Source of the DNA: a virus | Length of the DNA stretch: 5,082 nt | IMG/VR virus record: IMGVR_UViG_3300045988_004881 | Coordinates: 1-5,082 of that record | Strand: one strand, 5' to 3' | Part shown: in pieces, positions 1-5,082 of the stretch | How the letters are laid out: each line of letters opens with the position of its first letter | How positions within the stretch are numbered: position 1 is the first letter of the stretch | The notes under the pieces: model-generated | Told to the model about the DNA's origin: nothing | Seen by the model: the letters and a program-made list of their open reading frames with translations, nothing else | Database searches by the model: none | Position numbers and translations under genes: made by a program

Positions 1-840
1 ACTGGTTCCGATATTACTGCTCCTTTACTTGGTTATTATGGTGGTTTGGTCGCTGATCTTTCTTCTGTGACTGCCGCTACTATTAACTCTCTTCGTCAGG
101 CGTTCCAGCTTCAAAAACTTTATGAACGCGATGCTCGCGGTGGTACACGTTATACTGAAATTCTTCGTTCACATTTCGGCGTTGTTTCCCCCGATTCTCG
201 TCTCCAGCGTCCGGAATATCTTGGTGGTTCTGAAAGCCCTGTTATTATCAATCCTGTTGTTCAGCAGTCCGCGACCGGTGAAACCGGTGCCGCAACGCCT
301 CAGGGCAACCTTGCCGCTTATGGCCTTGCTTCTAGCACTTCGGCTAAACATGGATTTACAAAATCGTTTGTTGAGCATGGTATCATTATTGGCCTGCTTA
401 ATGTTCGCGCAGATCTCACGTATCAGCAGGGAATCCCGCGTATGTTCTCTCGCCGTACGCGTTTTGACTTCTATTGGCCGGTACTTGCTCACCTTGGTGA
501 ACAGGCTATCCTTAACAAGGAAATTTATGCTCAGGGTACTGATAAGGATGATGATGTATTTGGTTATCAGGAAAGATATGCAGAATATCGTTATTTCCCT
601 AGTATGATTACCGGTAAGCTTAGGTCTACTGATTCTCAGAGCCTTGATGTTTGGCATCTTTCTCAAAAGTTTGATAGTCTCCCTACGCTTTCTGCGCAGT
701 TTATTGAAGATAATCCGCCAGTGTCTCGCATTCTTGCAGTACAGAGTGAACCTCAGTTTATTATTGATAGCTATATTGAAATGAAATGCGCACGCCCCAT
801 GCCGGTATACGGTGTTCCTGGTCTTGTTGACCACTTCTAA
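1..840 (+). CDS. VP1: Major capsid protein VP1 (F-like), C-terminal portion. The reading frame is open from base 1 and continues from 4156..5082 across the circular junction. The full protein is about 555 aa.
   Basis: Frame 1 is open from position 1 to the TAA at 838-840. The M at 46 in the ORF track is an internal TTG and not a real start. Positions 1-99 are identical to 4984-5082, and the reading frame is continuous across that junction. The N-terminal part (see 4156..5082) carries the canonical Microviridae F/VP1 N-terminus. Third codon positions are strongly T-biased, as in the other genes. Confidence 0.9.
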   Translation, partial: TGSDITAPLLGYYGGLVADLSSVTAATINSLRQAFQLQKLYERDARGGTRYTEILRSHFGVVSPDSRLQRPEYLGGSESPVIINPVVQQSATGETGAATPQGNLAAYGLASSTSAKHGFTKSFVEHGIIIGLLNVRADLTYQQGIPRMFSRRTRFDFYWPVLAHLGEQAILNKEIYAQGTDKDDDVFGYQERYAEYRYFPSMITGKLRSTDSQSLDVWHLSQKFDSLPTLSAQFIEDNPPVSRILAVQSEPQFIIDSYIEMKCARPMPVYGVPGLVDHF

Positions 841-855
841 GCGAGGTGTTCTATT

Positions 856-1758
856 ATGGGTTTTCTCGGTAAATTTGGCGGTGCTATAATCGGTGCTGGC
901 GCTAGTTTACTAGGTGGTGTCTTAGCGAATAAACAACAGCAGAAACAGTTTAATGCTAACTATGAACTTTCTCATGATCAGTTGTATAAGCAACATCAAA
1001 TTGAAGTAGCCGATCTTCGCGCCGCTGGCCTTAATCCCATTCTATCTGCTAATGGTGGTAATAGTACTTTCGGTGCTTCTAGTGGCGGTTCTTATGAGAA
1101 CCTAGGTACTGCCGCGACTTCCGGATATATGGCCGCCCAGCAGGCTAGAAATCTTGAAATGCAGAATGAAGCTATTAAAGCTACGGTTGAAAAGACTCGT
1201 GCTGAAGCTTCTAACGTCTTACAGGATACGAAACTGAAATCTGCTCAGACCTCACAGGTTCAAGGTGAAACTACTTTGATACCACTCAAGGCTGATAATA
1301 TTTCTGCTCTTACTTCTCAGGCGAAACAGCAAACTCAGGTTTTTAAAATGCAGGTTAAGGTTGCGGATGCTAATATCAAGAAGATTCTTCAGGATATTGA
1401 AAATAGCATGCGTTTGACTGATGCTCAGGTTTCGGAGCTTGGTACACGTTCGGAAGCTAATATGGCCGCCGCTGGTGCTTCGTCTGCACTTGCGGCAAAG
1501 TCTTACGGTGAATTGTCACGATTGCAACAGCTTACACCGTATGAGATTGATAAGCTCGCGGCTGGTACTGCTGAAAATTTGGCTAGTGCGGCGAATCTTG
1601 ATGCATCTGCTCAACGTACTCTTGAAGATTCTTTGCGGATTAAGCTTGCGAATGAGCAAGAGCAGTCCGTGCAGGATATTAAAACTGGTCCCGCTCATCG
1701 TTTTGGTACTTCTATGGGTGAATTATTGCGCTGGATGCCGTTCAGTGCGTTGAAGTGA
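856..1758 (+). CDS. VP2: VP2-like minor capsid / DNA pilot protein (300 aa)
   Basis: ATG at 856, preceded by GAGGTG at 843-848 with a 7-nt spacer, and starting 16 nt after the VP1 stop. The N-terminus is a glycine-zipper hydrophobic segment, MGFLGKFGGAIIGAGASLLGG, resembling the phiX174 H pilot protein N-terminus MFGAIAGGIASALAGG. A long Q/A/K-rich region with predicted coiled-coil character follows (e.g. KATVEKTRAEASNVLQDTKLKSAQTSQVQ, QQTQVFKMQVKVADANIKKILQDIENS). Its position directly after VP1 matches gokushovirus VP2. Confidence 0.75.
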   Translation: MGFLGKFGGAIIGAGASLLGGVLANKQQQKQFNANYELSHDQLYKQHQIEVADLRAAGLNPILSANGGNSTFGASSGGSYENLGTAATSGYMAAQQARNLEMQNEAIKATVEKTRAEASNVLQDTKLKSAQTSQVQGETTLIPLKADNISALTSQAKQQTQVFKMQVKVADANIKKILQDIENSMRLTDAQVSELGTRSEANMAAAGASSALAAKSYGELSRLQQLTPYEIDKLAAGTAENLASAANLDASAQRTLEDSLRIKLANEQEQSVQDIKTGPAHRFGTSMGELLRWMPFSALK

Positions 1759-1764
1759 AAGGAG
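1759..1764 (+). promoter_or_regulatory. Shine-Dalgarno AAGGAG for the 38-aa basic protein gene
   Basis: Perfect AAGGAG, 8 nt upstream of the GTG at 1773 and directly after the VP2 stop codon. Confidence 0.7.
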
Positions 1765-1772
1765 TTTTTATT

Positions 1773-1889
1773 GTGAAACGTCGTAAACTGTCTAAGAAAA
1801 AGTCTCGTAAGATTTTCACAAAAGGAGCCGTTAACGTAAAAAAACGTAATCTCCGCGCTCGCCCTATGCGCGGTGGCTTCCGGATTTAA
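1773..1889 (+). CDS. Small highly basic DNA-binding/packaging protein (38 aa), analogous to phiX174 J and gokushovirus ORF8/VP8
   Basis: It is not in the ORF track because it is under 60 aa. GTG start at 1773 is preceded by a perfect AAGGAG at 1759-1764 with an 8-nt spacer, immediately after the VP2 stop. Translation is VKRRKLSKKKSRKIFTKGAVNVKKRNLRARPMRGGFRI: 17 of 38 residues are K/R and none are acidic. The stop TAA at 1887-1889 is 2 nt before the VP4 ATG, which suggests translational coupling. phiX174 J is also 38 aa and similarly basic. Confidence 0.7.
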   Translation: MKRRKLSKKKSRKIFTKGAVNVKKRNLRARPMRGGFRI

Positions 1890-1891
1890 TT

Positions 1892-2788
1892 ATGGCTTGT
1901 TATCATCCGATTGATTGCTGGCGTGTTCCTGACTCCAGCTCGAAATCGGGATATCGTATCGTGTTTGGTTCGCCTGCCTCGCCGCCTGCGCGAGGCGCTG
2001 AATCTTGTACTATCCCTTGTGGCAAATGTATAGGATGTAGGCTTGCGCACTCTCGGCAATGGGCAGTCAGGTGTGTTCATGAAGCGTCCTTGCATGATCG
2101 TAATTGTTTCTTGACTTTGACTTTTGATGATGCGCATCTTCCAGCTTCCGGATCTGTGAGTGTACGTGATGTTCAGCTTTTTCTAAAACGGTTACGTAAG
2201 GCTTTGTCTTATCAGAATATCCGGATTCGTTTTTTCGCTTGTGGTGAATACGGTGATAAAAATCTTAGGCCTCATTATCATCTTATTATATTTAATTACG
2301 ATTTTTCTGATGATCGGCAGTTACTTAGACAGACACCTTACGGCCCGCTTTATATCTCTGATTTTTTATTCCGCTTGTGGCCTTACGGTTTTCATACTAT
2401 TGGTAATGTTACTTTTAAAAGTTGTGCTTATGTAGCGCGCTATGTTACTAAGAAGGTGTATGGCAAGGATGCCCCAGCGCATTATAACGGTCGTACGCCT
2501 GAATTCATCACAATGTCGCGCAAGCCTGGGATCGCTCATGATTGGATAGTTAAGTATTTTGACGATGTTTATAATTATGACAGGGTTGTTCTGCCGGATG
2601 GTATGATTACGCGCCCCCCGGCGTACTATGATGATTATTTGCATTTGACGGACGCTGAAAAGTATGATATACTAAAGGCACAAAGAAAGGCGACGGTTAA
2701 GAATGAGTCGGTCACGCGCCTTCTTCAAAAGGAACAACATCAAATTGAGGTTGCTAAAAAGTTGATTCGACCGATCGAAGGAGACTAG
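1892..2788 (+). CDS. VP4: VP4 replication initiator protein (HUH rolling-circle endonuclease, phiX A-like), 298 aa
   Basis: Motif I is FLTLTF (nt 2108-2125). Motif II is the HUH sequence HYHLIIF (nt 2273-2293). Motif III, with two catalytic tyrosines in YxxxY spacing, is YVARYVTKK (nt 2429-2455); compare phiX174 A YVAKYVNKK. There is an N-terminal Cys cluster CGKCIGCRLAHSRQWA (CxxCxxC), typical of gokushovirus Rep. Confidence 0.95.
   Translation: MACYHPIDCWRVPDSSSKSGYRIVFGSPASPPARGAESCTIPCGKCIGCRLAHSRQWAVRCVHEASLHDRNCFLTLTFDDAHLPASGSVSVRDVQLFLKRLRKALSYQNIRIRFFACGEYGDKNLRPHYHLIIFNYDFSDDRQLLRQTPYGPLYISDFLFRLWPYGFHTIGNVTFKSCAYVARYVTKKVYGKDAPAHYNGRTPEFITMSRKPGIAHDWIVKYFDDVYNYDRVVLPDGMITRPPAYYDDYLHLTDAEKYDILKAQRKATVKNESVTRLLQKEQHQIEVAKKLIRPIEGD
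2777..2782 (+). promoter_or_regulatory. Shine-Dalgarno AAGGAG for the VP5-like gene, embedded in the VP4 3' end
   Basis: AAGGAG 7 nt upstream of the ATG at 2790. Confidence 0.65.
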
Positions 2789-2789
2789 G

Positions 2790-3083
2790 ATGAAAATTAT
2801 TTTTTGTGTTCATGATCGTAAAACTAATTCGTGTGCTCTTTGCAAAGAAGCCGCAAATATCGAAGAATTTGAGCGCTGGTTTGCGACTGTATTCCTTCGC
2901 GATCAGTCCATGTTTGCGCTTTATCCTCAGGACTATGATATTTATTCCGTTACTTCGCTTGATGATGAGAATATGACCATTCAGGATTCTTATCCGCCTA
3001 AGCTTATTTGTTCGGTCGATGAACTTTTCGACATCTTTAAGATTGCTCGTCCGAACCTTGCCCGAAGCTCGGACGAGGCCTAG
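2790..3083 (+). CDS. VP5-like small protein (97 aa), hypothetical; possible zinc-binding N-terminus and acidic C-terminus
   Basis: ATG at 2790 with AAGGAG at 2777-2782 (7-nt spacer) embedded in the 3' end of VP4, starting 1 nt after the VP4 stop. Its position immediately downstream of Rep is where gokushoviruses carry VP5. The sequence has C-x-H-x7-C-x2-C (CVHDRKTNSCALC) and an acidic tail, and it is followed by a terminator. Similarity to known VP5 was not verifiable by eye. Confidence 0.6.
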   Translation: MKIIFCVHDRKTNSCALCKEAANIEEFERWFATVFLRDQSMFALYPQDYDIYSVTSLDDENMTIQDSYPPKLICSVDELFDIFKIARPNLARSSDEA

Positions 3084-3117
3084 TTCTTCTCTTCTCTTTT
3101 GCCGTTCCCAGCGGCAA

Positions 3118-3156
3118 GCCGCTGATTCTTCCTCTCGTCAGCGGCTTTTTTCTTTT
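3118..3156 (+). terminator. Rho-independent terminator downstream of the VP5-like gene
   Basis: GCCGCTG (3118-3124) pairs with CAGCGGC (3139-3145) as a 7-bp GC-rich stem with a 14-nt loop, followed by TTTTTTCTTTT (3146-3156). An additional upstream CAGCGGC (3109-3115) could form an alternative hairpin with 3118-3124 using a 2-nt loop. The whole element sits in a polypyrimidine tract (3084-3100 and 3146-3162 are pure C/T). Confidence 0.55.
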
Positions 3157-3176
3157 CCCTTTATTGCCCTAGGGGC

Positions 3177-3255
3177 ATGGGGGGAAATCGCGCGGTTTAA
3201 CTGATTTTTGTGCTTGTGTTTTAACTATTCATGTCGTCCGCGAGGTTCCCCCCAT
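3177..3255 (+). repeat. Long-range 10-bp inverted repeat ATGGGGGGAA / TTCCCCCCAT (G6/C6) enclosing 59 nt, with a secondary CGCGG/CCGCG pairing inside
   Basis: ATGGGGGGAA (3177-3186) is the reverse complement of TTCCCCCCAT (3246-3255). Inside it, CGCGG (3191-3195) is complementary to CCGCG (3238-3242). The CCCTAGGG palindrome at 3167-3174 lies immediately upstream. Confidence 0.6.
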
Positions 3256-3269
3256 TATCAGCGCAGAGC

Positions 3270-3288
3270 CTGAGGCGGCCAGCCTCAG
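3270..3288 (+). repeat. GC-rich hairpin: CTGAGGC - GGCCA - GCCTCAG (7-bp stem, 5-nt loop)
   Basis: CTGAGGC (3270-3276) is the reverse complement of GCCTCAG (3282-3288). No T-run follows it. Confidence 0.6.
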
Positions 3289-3331
3289 ATAAAGCGTAGC
3301 TTTAACTTTAAAGGTTAGGTGATGTTATGTC

Positions 3332-3544
3332 ATGTACAAAGTACCTAGTTTTTTTAATCGCTTTATATTTGACGGTTTCGATCGTTGTGAGTATTGCCAA
3401 TGCGTTTTGTTTCATATTGACGACTATGTGTCTGTATGCTTAAATTGTGGTGCTTGTTTTACTAGTAGTAATCTTAAACCTACTAGTCTATTTGAAGATA
3501 CTTGTAGCGCGGATCCGCGCGGAAAGGAAGATCATGAAATTTAA
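3332..3544 (+). CDS. Hypothetical small Cys-rich protein (70 aa); candidate zinc-ribbon with CxxCxC...CxxCxxC; coding status uncertain
   Basis: ATG at 3332 with AGGTGA at 3317-3322 (9-nt spacer). The ORF stays open for 213 nt through an AT-rich region where stops would be expected. Cys positions are C19, C22, C24, C36, C39, C42 and C57, giving the CxxC-x13-CxxC spacing of C4 zinc ribbons. The stop TAA at 3542-3544 overlaps the VP3 start at 3534. It is on the same strand as all other genes, between the terminator and VP3. Confidence 0.3.
   Translation: MYKVPSFFNRFIFDGFDRCEYCQCVLFHIDDYVSVCLNCGACFTSSNLKPTSLFEDTCSADPRGKEDHEI
3507..3520. repeat. Perfect 14-bp palindrome GCGCGGATCCGCGC immediately upstream of the VP3 RBS
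   Basis: The sequence equals its own reverse complement. It ends 1 nt before the GGAAAGGAAG Shine-Dalgarno region of VP3 and lies in the last codons of the 70-aa candidate ORF. Confidence 0.65.
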
Positions 3545-3980
3545 TTCTCGCTATTCTGTTACCGGCGAAAAGCCGGGTATCACTTTTGATCAGCCATCGC
3601 AGACGCTCCAGTCATTTCGAGATGACGCGGACATTAACTGCATTATTGCGCGCTATGAGAATACCGGTGTTCTTGTTGATCCTACTGTACCCGTTTCTCG
3701 CACCCCTGATTTTGGTGATTTTTCTGATATGCCTGATTATCAGACTGCCCAGAATGTCATAATCGCGGCTAAAAATGCGTTCGATTCTCTCTCGTCTAAA
3801 GTTCGCGAACGATTTAACAATGATCCTGCCGCGTACTTTGATTTTGTTCGAAATCTTAAGGAAGGAAGTGATGAATTTGCTGAAGCCGTTAGCCTTGGAA
3901 TTGTTAACAAGCCTGTTGACCATTCTCATGAAGTACCTCCCGGAGCTTCTCAAAGTTCCGGTGAAAAAGTAAATTCTTGA
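3534..3980 (+). CDS. VP3: VP3-like internal scaffolding protein (148 aa)
   Basis: ATG at 3534 is preceded by GGAAAGGAAG (3521-3530), with the AAGGA core and a 5-nt spacer. The ORF-track start at 3447 is a GTG directly after an in-frame TAA and has no RBS, so 3534 is preferred. The sequence MKFNSRYSVTGEKPGITFDQPSQTLQSFRDDADINCIIARYENTGVL matches the gokushovirus VP3 pattern (PS.TQQSF...DIN.I...Y..TG) as far as I recall it. The protein is small and acidic, consistent with a scaffold. Confidence 0.75.
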   Translation: MKFNSRYSVTGEKPGITFDQPSQTLQSFRDDADINCIIARYENTGVLVDPTVPVSRTPDFGDFSDMPDYQTAQNVIIAAKNAFDSLSSKVRERFNNDPAAYFDFVRNLKEGSDEFAEAVSLGIVNKPVDHSHEVPPGASQSSGEKVNS

Positions 3981-4001
3981 CATTTACTAGACATTTACTA
4001 G
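3980..4001 (+). repeat. Perfect tandem duplication of the 11-mer ACATTTACTAG immediately after the VP3 stop
   Basis: Positions 3980-3990 and 3991-4001 are identical. TTGACA (3976-3981) overlaps the VP3 TGA and the first repeat copy. Confidence 0.7.
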
Positions 4002-4014
4002 CGGTAAAACGACG

Positions 4015-4050
4015 TCCGGCCAATTACACTACTTGATGTAATTGGCCGGA
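4015..4050 (+). repeat. Perfect 14-bp stem / 8-nt loop hairpin in the VP3-VP1 intergenic region
   Basis: TCCGGCCAATTACA (4015-4028) is the exact reverse complement of TGTAATTGGCCGGA (4037-4050). The loop is CTACTTGA (4029-4036). No U-tract follows it, since the downstream sequence is GTGACACCG, so it is not a canonical intrinsic terminator. Confidence 0.7.
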
Positions 4051-4155
4051 GTGACACCGTTAAACGGTTAATTCTTCACATCCTTTGAATAAGTTGTGAA
4101 TGATACAGCCTGTTGGCTTTGCCTTAGGGCGGTCATTCCAGAAAGGTTTATTGAT

Positions 4156-5082
4156 ATGAAATCAGTTATGAAGCATTTGTTTTCACAGATTCCGAGAGCT
4201 CAAATTTCTCGGTCTGTGTTTGATCGCTCTCATGGTTGGAAATCTACATTTGATAGTGGTTACCTTGTTCCGTTTCTCGTTGATGAAGTTCTGCCCGGCG
4301 ATTCTTACAAGGTTAAGTTTAATTTTTTGGCTCGTCTTAGTACTCCGATTGTTCCGACCATGGATAACTTGTTCCTCGACACTTTTTATTTTTTTGTTCC
4401 GTATCGTCTTCTGTGGAAACACTGGGAACAGTTCAACGGTCAGCAGGATTATCCGGGAGCTAGTACGGATTATCTCGTACCTCAAACTTCCGCTCCTGCT
4501 GAAGGTGGTTTTCCTGTTGGATCCTTGGAAGATTATTTCGGCTTGCCTACTGGTGTGCAAGGTATCAAGGCTAATGAATTGGCCGCTAGAGCGTATGCCC
4601 TTATTTGGAATGAATGGTTTAGAGATGAAAATTTGCAGAATCCTATCAACCTTTCATCTTACGCCGAAATTTCAACGGCTTCTGGCCTTGATGATGTTGG
4701 TCTCGGTGATGCTGGTTTTACCGGTTCTCACAAGCTTTTGAGACGTGGTAAGCGTCACGATTATTTTACGAGTGCTCTTCCGTGGCCACAAAAAGGCCCT
4801 GGCGTTGAATTACCACTTTCCGGTAATGCTGAGATTATTAGAGATGGTAATAAGGCTTTCGCTTTGAGTGATGGTGATAATTCTCATATTGTTGGCTTTT
4901 CTTATACTGGTGGTCGTGGTCAGCTCTCTAAACCGCTAGCCCCTACTGATGCTGTTGTCGGTTTTTCCCAGTTTGCGCAGGGTACTGGTTCCGATATTAC
5001 TGCTCCTTTACTTGGTTATTATGGTGGTTTGGTCGCTGATCTTTCTTCTGTGACTGCCGCTACTATTAACTCTCTTCGTCAG
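4156..5082 (+). CDS. VP1: Major capsid protein VP1 (F-like), N-terminal portion of 309 codons; continues at 100..840 by circular wrap
   Basis: ATG at 4156 with AAAGG at 4142-4146 (9-nt spacer). Translation is MKSVMKHLFSQIPRAQISRSVFDRSHGWKSTFDSGYLVPFLVDEVLPGDSYKVKFNFLARLSTPIVPTMDNLFLDTFYFFVPYRLLWKHWEQFNG. This matches the highly conserved Microviridae capsid N-terminus (F..SQ.P...I.RS.FD.SH....TF..G.L.P....EVLPGD.). There is no stop through 5082. Positions 4984-5082 duplicate 1-99 in frame. Confidence 0.92.
   Translation, partial: MKSVMKHLFSQIPRAQISRSVFDRSHGWKSTFDSGYLVPFLVDEVLPGDSYKVKFNFLARLSTPIVPTMDNLFLDTFYFFVPYRLLWKHWEQFNGQQDYPGASTDYLVPQTSAPAEGGFPVGSLEDYFGLPTGVQGIKANELAARAYALIWNEWFRDENLQNPINLSSYAEISTASGLDDVGLGDAGFTGSHKLLRRGKRHDYFTSALPWPQKGPGVELPLSGNAEIIRDGNKAFALSDGDNSHIVGFSYTGGRGQLSKPLAPTDAVVGFSQFAQGTGSDITAPLLGYYGGLVADLSSVTAATINSLRQ
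4984..5082. repeat. 99-nt terminal redundancy identical to positions 1-99; this is an assembly signature of a circular genome with a unit length of 4983 nt
   Basis: Direct comparison shows 4984-5082 identical to 1-99 base for base. The VP1 reading frame is continuous across the implied junction. Confidence 0.95.

Follow-up and report, generated by a model that had tools for sequence, protein, structure and literature searches.

A gokushovirus genome from the human gut, very probably complete and circular, with a candidate replication-origin hairpin and a seventh conserved open reading frame

Among the Gokushovirinae, the enterogokushoviruses share the gene order VP4-VP5-VP3-VP1-VP2-VP8 (PMC7062461). 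Capsid structures are available for the enterogokushovirus PhiEC6098 (8DES) and for SpV4 (9CGM), and a variable loop of the major capsid protein, EF4, forms the threefold "mushroom" protrusion that defines gokushovirus capsids (PMC11281519). Here we analyze a stretch of 5,082 nucleotides that covers positions 1 to 5,082 of IMG/VR virus record IMGVR_UViG_3300045988_004881, which we refer to as the window. We conclude, with a probability of about 0.93, that the window is the complete circular 4,983-nt genome of an uncultured human-gut gokushovirus, linearized inside the VP1 capsid gene. In addition to the six core genes, the genome carries a 70-codon open reading frame (ORF), which we designate o70, and a strongly conserved hairpin at positions 4015-4050 that resembles a replication origin. 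All features are given in window positions and lie on the plus strand, the strand shown.

Compared with the described systems, the window shares its gene order with PhiEC6098 and the enterobacterial prophages, with o70 added between VP5 and VP3. A search of the PDB with VP1 returned 8DES (4.7e-204) as the best match and 9CGM (1.5e-97) as the only other, and the F proteins of phiX174, G4 and alpha3 were not detected. The origin-like hairpin is also present in an enterobacterial prophage of Intestinirhabdus (L016), however, the window VP1 is only ~58% identical to that of this prophage. The window also differs from the enterogokushoviruses in length (4,983 nt versus 4,316-4,692), in the extra o70, and in carrying no dif motif. 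With Chp2, phiMH2K and SpV4 the window has in common an F-type capsid with an EF4 loop, a Chlamy_scaf VP3, a HUH endonuclease VP4, VP5, VP8 and a hairpin with a TACTTG loop, and its VP1 is 52%, 47% and 38% identical to theirs, respectively. These three phages lack o70, and in Chp2 and phiMH2K VP3 follows VP2 directly, while the SpV4 record annotates the capsid gene only. The likeness to phiX174 (Bullavirinae) extends to the circular single-stranded DNA (ssDNA) microvirus plan and to a replication initiator (Rep) with HUH and YxxxY motifs, where FYVAKYVNKK of the A protein corresponds to AYVARYVTKK of VP4. The window has no homologues of phiX174 D, G, B, K, C or E, however, and the phiX174 F protein lacks the EF4 loop and gives no significant match to the window VP1 (E = 0.2).

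Positions 1-99 of the window recur without a single difference as positions 4984-5082, and comparison of the window ends showed that 99 nt is the maximal terminal overlap. An exact repeat of this length cannot arise by chance within 5 kb, and trimming it leaves a unit of 4,983 nt. The exact VP4 protein is present on five public contigs, four of which match the 4,983-nt unit in full, with 0 mismatches. These four assemblies start at window positions 638, 4338, 4808 and 2883 and have terminal overlaps of 127, 119, 55 and 30 nt. In both records that name the k-mer length of the assembler (k127 and k119) the overlap equals k, and we infer the same for the remaining assemblies. Including the window, the five assemblies range in k from ~31 to 127 and come from several ENA analyses and from Logan, where the identical contigs are unannotated, and the sample names suggest that the source was a human gut metagenome (ERR589836, PRJEB6997). 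Since the overlap tracks the k of the assembler and the break points are arbitrary, the redundancy marks a circular (or tandemly repeated) template. The 99-nt redundancy is thus an assembler k-mer artefact of a circular template and not a feature of the virus: the first copy (1-99), located within VP1, is part of the unit genome (1-4983), and the second (4984-5082) is overlap left by a de Bruijn assembler (k = 99) that should be trimmed.

The initial annotation, made from the sequence of the window alone, had proposed the 99-nt terminal redundancy, a capsid ORF reading through the junction, and a circle opened inside VP1, with the two VP1 calls at the window edges belonging to one gene. Our results bear this out, as the assemblies above break the identical unit at four other points and the capsid frame is open across the junction from position 4093 to the stop codon at 838-840. 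The first ATG of this frame is at 4156, and the trimmed and circularized sequence gives a single ORF of 555 aa. The same protein is unbroken on contig L061, and VP1 of the relative MG945726 is collinear with it across the window junction, end to end, at 88.6% over 555 aa; the relatives are opened elsewhere. As a separate observation, one ENA scaffold (L057, 6,360 nt) consists of the 4,983-nt unit, the 55-nt overlap and ~1.3 kb without blastn similarity to the window.

The seven genes are all on the plus strand in the order VP1, VP2, VP8, VP4, VP5, o70, VP3, and 91% of the genome is coding. In profile searches VP1, VP2, VP3, VP4, VP5 and VP8 all matched Microviridae families, which agrees with the core set on one strand described in the initial annotation. 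Two of its other statements have to be corrected. It had placed spacers of 1-16 nt or overlaps between all genes, which is not the case: spacers of 15, 14, 2 and 1 nt separate the genes of the VP1-VP2-VP8-VP4-VP5 block, but long gaps also occur at 3084-3331 (248 nt) and at 3981-4155 (175 nt), which together make up 423 nt of non-coding space and contain conserved, covarying hairpins. Its gene set was also incomplete, since it missed the conserved ORF o70 at 3332-3544. As ssDNA, both gaps fold far better than shuffled sequences (z = -5.3 for intergenic region 1 (IGR1) and -5.4 for the other).

VP1, the major capsid protein, is encoded by 4156-4983 (aa 1-276), continuing at position 1 through 840 (aa 277-555 and the stop codon), and matches Pfam Phage_F over its full length (1.8e-177, 591.6 bits against a cut-off of 25) as well as phrog_514 (1.3e-220). 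VP2, the DNA pilot or minor capsid protein (856-1758, 300 aa), matches phrog_8693, "pilot protein for DNA ejection" (7.7e-63), and is 71-93% identical to the VP2 of relatives. The replication initiator VP4 (1892-2788, 298 aa) is a HUH endonuclease by its matches to REP_ORF2-G2P (4.3e-23, 81.9 bits against a cut-off of 27.8) and phrog_942 (2.5e-118), with the HUH motif PHYHLIIF (H128, H130) and paired tyrosines in AYVARYVTKK (Y180, Y184). VP5 (2790-3083, 97 aa) matches Pfam Phage_ORF5 (2.2e-12, 46.9 bits against a cut-off of 27) and phrog_1670 (1.5e-13), and the internal scaffold VP3 (3534-3980, 148 aa) matches Chlamy_scaf (1.7e-30, 106.3 bits against a cut-off of 25) and phrog_1642 (3.6e-36).

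VP8 was previously described as a J-like basic protein, which holds, although its start is probably not the one at 1755. The alternative GTG at 1755 gives a form of 44 aa, in which the PHROG match begins at residue 7, exactly where the GTG at 1773 lies, and a Shine-Dalgarno sequence, AAGGAG, lies 8 nt upstream of the GTG at 1773. The start at 1773 is the more probable one, and the DNA-binding protein, J-like and basic, is then 38 aa long (1773-1889; phrog_10695, 4.2e-15). This form has 17 lysines and arginines, no aspartate or glutamate and an isoelectric point of 12.0, and VP8 is kept in all relatives.

Judged from its sequence, with relatives compared pairwise by identity rather than by phylogeny, the virus is a member of the Gokushovirinae in every feature that can be assessed in this way. 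For the Microviridae as a family, VP1 is an F-type capsid protein with a single jelly roll, VP4 is a HUH Rep with paired catalytic tyrosines, and the genome is a small circle within the range of about 4.2-6.5 kb with its genes on one strand. For the subfamily, the VP2, VP3, VP5 and VP8 set is present. At the level of sequence, residues 228-304 of VP1 align with residues 227-296 of SpV4, corresponding to the EF4 loop, where phiX174 F has 8 residues. No match to the external scaffold D or spike G families was found among 18 scanned ORFs, and the genome has no room left for them. Any statement on its packaged strand, virion form, host or lifestyle is a prediction by homology.

The stretch encoding the hypervariable EF4 loop covers 4831-4983 and runs on to about position 40, so that the contig junction falls inside it. 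It is by far the least conserved coding region of the genome, with a conservation across the clade of 0.26-0.40 versus ~0.8 elsewhere. Strain variation in the loop probably caused the assembly graph to branch at the contig junction.

The strand shown is the coding strand and, by homology, would be the virion-sense strand, and host enzymes would turn the ssDNA circle into a double-stranded replicative form. VP4 would then nick the plus strand at a specific origin, join its 5' end through Y180 or Y184, and drive rolling-circle synthesis. New ssDNA circles would be packaged in the company of VP5 and VP8 into T=1 procapsids, predicted to form from VP1 with the VP3 scaffold and VP2, and without an external scaffold or spike.

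The candidate plus-strand origin (4015-4058) lies in the gap between VP3 and VP1. It consists of the strongest hairpin in the genome (4015-4050, inverted repeat I2), with a perfect 14-bp stem (4015-4028/4037-4050) and the loop CTACTTGA (4029-4036), directly followed on its 3' side by a G and a TGACACC box (4052-4058). Across the clade, the 60 nt around this hairpin are the most conserved in the genome (0.93), and one relative has a compensatory double change in the stem. A matching hairpin is found in 31 gokushovirus loci, including Chp2, with the loop YYACTTGAT in all of them and a 3' (C/G)TGACA box in most, and the stems are very different yet always paired. SpV4 and phiMH2K have variant hairpins with a TACTTGT loop. 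These elements are located at ~2906-2950 in Chp2, ~512-545 in SpV4, ~3298-3337 in phiMH2K and ~10315-10358 at the locus of a Phascolarctobacterium faecium prophage (L014).

When the 31 instances were aligned, both sides were changed in 12 of 13 stem pairs, in 75 cells altogether, and the observed covariation score was reached by 0 of 500 shuffles. Paired cells amount to 80.5%, compared with 27-39% after sliding of the partner columns. The phiX174 origin, annotated as rep_origin at 4306, reads CAACTTG^ATATTAATAAC, and the core ACTTG^A is common to it and to the hairpin loop. A loop that is fixed across unrelated hosts, a stem that is free to vary, and a phiX174-like core together suggest recognition by the phage's own Rep. 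We therefore slightly favor the hairpin at 4015-4050 as the plus-strand origin of Rep-driven replication. By analogy with the phiX174 A site, CAACTTG^A, VP4 may nick between G4035 and A4036, CTACTTG^A, and the candidate VP4 cleavage target carries CTACTTGATG. The wider proposal, in which the hairpin is an unmapped origin common to the Gokushovirinae, nicked by VP4 at TACTTG^A in the loop, and the clade-specific o70 is a new accessory factor of gut gokushoviruses, would be an even bet in our judgment. In the literature searched, which leaves older subscription papers outside, we found no description of a gokushovirus origin or of this hairpin, and we do not claim that it is undescribed.

Two considerations weigh against assigning the origin to this hairpin. 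The phiX174 origin is inside a coding region, gene A, and is not a hairpin, and the element at 4015-4050 could serve in complementary-strand priming, in packaging or in the formation of transcript 3' ends. The strongest alternative is that the hairpin is not the Rep origin at all, but a priming site for the complementary strand, a packaging signal, or a terminator or stabilizer of the transcript after VP3. For priming, phiX174 employs an intergenic hairpin for primosome assembly, and in other microvirus clades, hairpins that are conserved and show compensatory changes have tentatively been read as priming sites (PMC9865509). For a role in transcription, the hairpin comes directly after the VP3 stop codon and a consensus scan gives it a terminator-like score, however, this score is found on the minus strand only, which carries no genes, and on the coding strand the hairpin is not trailed by a T-run. 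Against these alternatives, the core TACTTG(A/T) is kept in phages of Chlamydia, Spiroplasma and Bdellovibrio and in prophages of Enterobacteriaceae and Negativicutes while the stems vary freely with compensation, which suggests recognition by a conserved protein of the phages rather than by priming factors of the host, and the loop matches the cleavage core of the phiX174 A protein. We consider such non-origin roles unlikely, though they have more in their favor than any of the other alternatives discussed below.

The seventh ORF, o70 (3332-3544), encodes 70 aa with a zinc-ribbon-like Cys4 arrangement (CxxC...CxxC) and overlaps the start of VP3 by 11 nt. Of 23 clade genomes, 22 carry the ORF intact, every indel in it is a multiple of 3, and its cysteines C19, C22, C36 and C39 are invariant. 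In a large protein collection we found 53 homologous clusters, all on contigs of at most ~5.4 kb and most of them near genome length. No Pfam or PHROG match was obtained for o70, and none of the nine more distant relatives checked, all of them genome-embedded, has it. Its AlphaFold model is of low confidence (pLDDT 58.6), and Foldseek gave no significant match with it (best E 0.58), although nearly all of the weak top matches were small zinc-ribbon proteins. The variability of o70 at the three codon positions is 0.125, 0.086 and 0.100, so that the third position is not raised, in contrast to ratios of 1.9-5.5 in the core genes. This constraint is explained in part by a small, conserved GC hairpin (3507-3520) within the ORF, just upstream of the VP3 ribosome-binding site, for which the clade alignment contains the compensatory variants GCGCGG/CCGCGC, GCGTG/CACGC and GCGAAG/CTTCGC.

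The gap between VP5 and o70 contains further structured elements. A terminator-like element at 3101-3154 comprises a small hairpin (3101-3115), a second hairpin with arms at 3116-3125 and 3138-3147 (inverted repeat I9), and a T-run, and among 12 relatives 4 of the 16 consensus pairs of its stem are changed on both sides. The hairpin and T-run at 3116-3154 probably end the rightward transcript. Against this, the element is wholly deleted in five relatives (L067, L068, L070, L072 and L076) and is therefore dispensable. Downstream lies a long hairpin closed by G6/C6 (3177-3255, inverted repeat I10), in which 15 consensus pairs include 0 broken ones in 14 sequences, 2 pairs being compensatory. Its inner stem covaries. 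Most of the clade has retained this hairpin, but the subgroup of MG945726, MG945754 and MG945228 lacks it, and we regard it as a candidate complementary-strand priming site or regulatory region. Immediately upstream of o70, ~60 nt at 3272-3331 with a small hairpin (CTGAGGC/GCCTCAG) are common to the window and its nearest relative, L069, only.

Given the gene order that the virus shares with the lysogenic enterogokushoviruses, we considered whether it is temperate and integrates through host XerC/D at a dif-like site, as the enterogokushoviruses and Negativicutes prophages do. The nearest genome-embedded relatives, at VP1 identities of 58-63%, are in Phascolarctobacterium, Veillonella-assigned and enterobacterial genomes, with 61-63% to the Negativicutes loci (Veillonella, Phascolarctobacterium) and to an unclassified gut bacterium, and the Phascolarctobacterium prophages are flanked by dif-like repeats. 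No relative above 63% in VP1 was found inside a bacterial genome, however. The best matches to the dif motifs of E. coli, B. subtilis and Phascolarctobacterium in the window had 11-13 mismatches in 28, equal to shuffled sequence, and the 2-nt spacer between VP8 and VP4 is too short for a dif at the site that the enterogokushoviruses use, behind VP8. That the dif of the host may differ from these motifs is a point on the other side. Most gokushoviruses are without dif motifs (PMC7062461). On these grounds the virus probably does not integrate as a lysogen through XerC/D, and we view a temperate lifestyle of this kind as quite improbable.

Two Negativicutes prophages, L014 (P. faecium DSM 14760, ~5890-10450) and L043, have dif-like flanks and are opened in the gap between VP3 and VP1, unlike the enterogokushovirus prophages, which are opened after VP8. 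As the Negativicutes prophages open in the gap that holds the hairpin at 4015-4050, this hairpin was itself suspected of being a dif-like XerC/D site. We rejected that interpretation because the window holds no dif-like match above chance and because the Phascolarctobacterium prophages carry the hairpin apart from the dif-like repeat: there the element lies between a bacterial dif and a dif-like copy of the phage, with the hairpin ~100 nt upstream of the latter.

The nearest genome to the window, L069 (IMGVR_UViG_3300045988_012517), has an average nucleotide identity (ANI) of 93.5% across 95.9% of the genome. Scanning IMG/VR with the clade hairpin added 17 more members, of which L069 was the nearest and the others reached at most 85%, and for relatives other than L069 the ANI is 75-85%. 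The best GenBank matches are OP549870 (Microvirus sp. UC145V1_C49, from human vaginal secretion) and KT264828 (Gokushovirus WZ-2015a 80ct01, from cat feces), at ~81-83% over 92-94% (~83% over 92% for the best record), and further relatives are the pig-feces Microviridae sp. MG945726, MG945816, MG945754, MG945228 and MG945426. L069 and the GenBank relatives share with the window the seven-ORF layout, gene order, two intergenic regions, origin-like hairpin and o70, but differ in the EF4 loop of VP1, which is 22-61% identical to that of the window. Taking the usual phage species threshold of 95% genome-wide nucleotide identity, below which all deposited or IMG/VR genomes examined fall, the window is, as far as sequence comparison goes, a separate lineage in a well-sampled clade of mammalian-associated gokushoviruses. 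One of the relatives, MG945426.1 (5,637 nt, labeled "UNVERIFIED"), carries an inverted duplication of the VP1 5' region and contains the VP3-VP1 intergenic region twice, probably as an assembly artefact.

The similarity to L069 is uneven along the genome. VP2, VP4, VP5, IGR1 and o70 are 97-100% identical, VP3 is 81%, VP8 85% and VP1 88-92%. Other genomes reach 97-98% in o70 only or in VP5 only, and the VP5 protein is 100% identical to that of OP549870, whose other proteins range from 70 to 98%. This block-wise similarity suggests recombination within the clade. The same pattern, together with a contig break in a hypervariable region, where assembly graphs branch, could be expected if the sequence were an assembly chimera of co-occurring strains. 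However, the five assemblies give one unit with 0 mismatches across their range of k, all seven ORFs are intact, and many deposited genomes of the clade are likewise block-wise, as natural recombination predicts, which leaves a chimera highly improbable.

Two facts count against the complete circular genome that we favor: its circularity is based on assemblies, of which at least two share run ERR589836 and are thus independent assemblies rather than independent samples, and a tandem concatemer would yield identical assemblies. A linear molecule with a true 99-nt direct terminal repeat, or a contig that is a piece of a tandem concatemer, is nonetheless scarcely credible, for although the window by itself displays no more than a terminal direct repeat and rolling-circle intermediates are concatemeric in principle, a true repeat predicts constant ends and a constant 99 nt in every assembly, the identical unit instead ends at four other positions with overlaps of other lengths, and relatives are deposited as circular records opened at further different points. 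To our knowledge, all known Microviridae package monomeric circles, which also speaks against this alternative.

Several further candidates in the window were rejected as genes or signals. In a scan of 18 ORFs altogether, no Pfam family was matched by the further ORFs of at least 60 aa on either strand. The ORF o61 (3019-3204) and the long alternative-frame and minus-strand ORFs, which had no family matches, were rejected because their codon-position pattern mirrors an overlapping real gene or is without third-position excess. An N-terminal extension of VP3 from a GTG at 3447 is open in relatives but is without a ribosome-binding site and was not adopted, given its weak support. No tRNAs were found in the window, and a promoter scan gave 12 sites versus 8.4 +/- 2.7 in shuffled sequence, not above expectation, so that no promoter was called. 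An Rfam match to ar14, an alphaproteobacterial small RNA, at 3042-3152 (25.2 bits against a gathering threshold of 58.8, E 0.096) is regarded as chance; it overlaps the terminator-like hairpins after VP5.

Taken alone, the genome is of small significance, adding one species-level lineage to a large and well-sampled group of gut microviruses. It also provides a clean worked example in which a terminal overlap equal to the k of the assembler marks a circular template. For the design of synthetic or resurrected gokushoviruses, the break point must spare the cis-elements described here and o70. For the subfamily as a whole, the hairpin is the obvious candidate for the gokushovirus replication origin, and one that routine annotation leaves out, as it does the terminator-like hairpin after VP5 and o70, which comparison with relatives likewise brought to light. 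If this assignment is true, the gokushoviruses would present a nick site homologous to that of phiX174 in the loop of a hairpin, as in other HUH systems.

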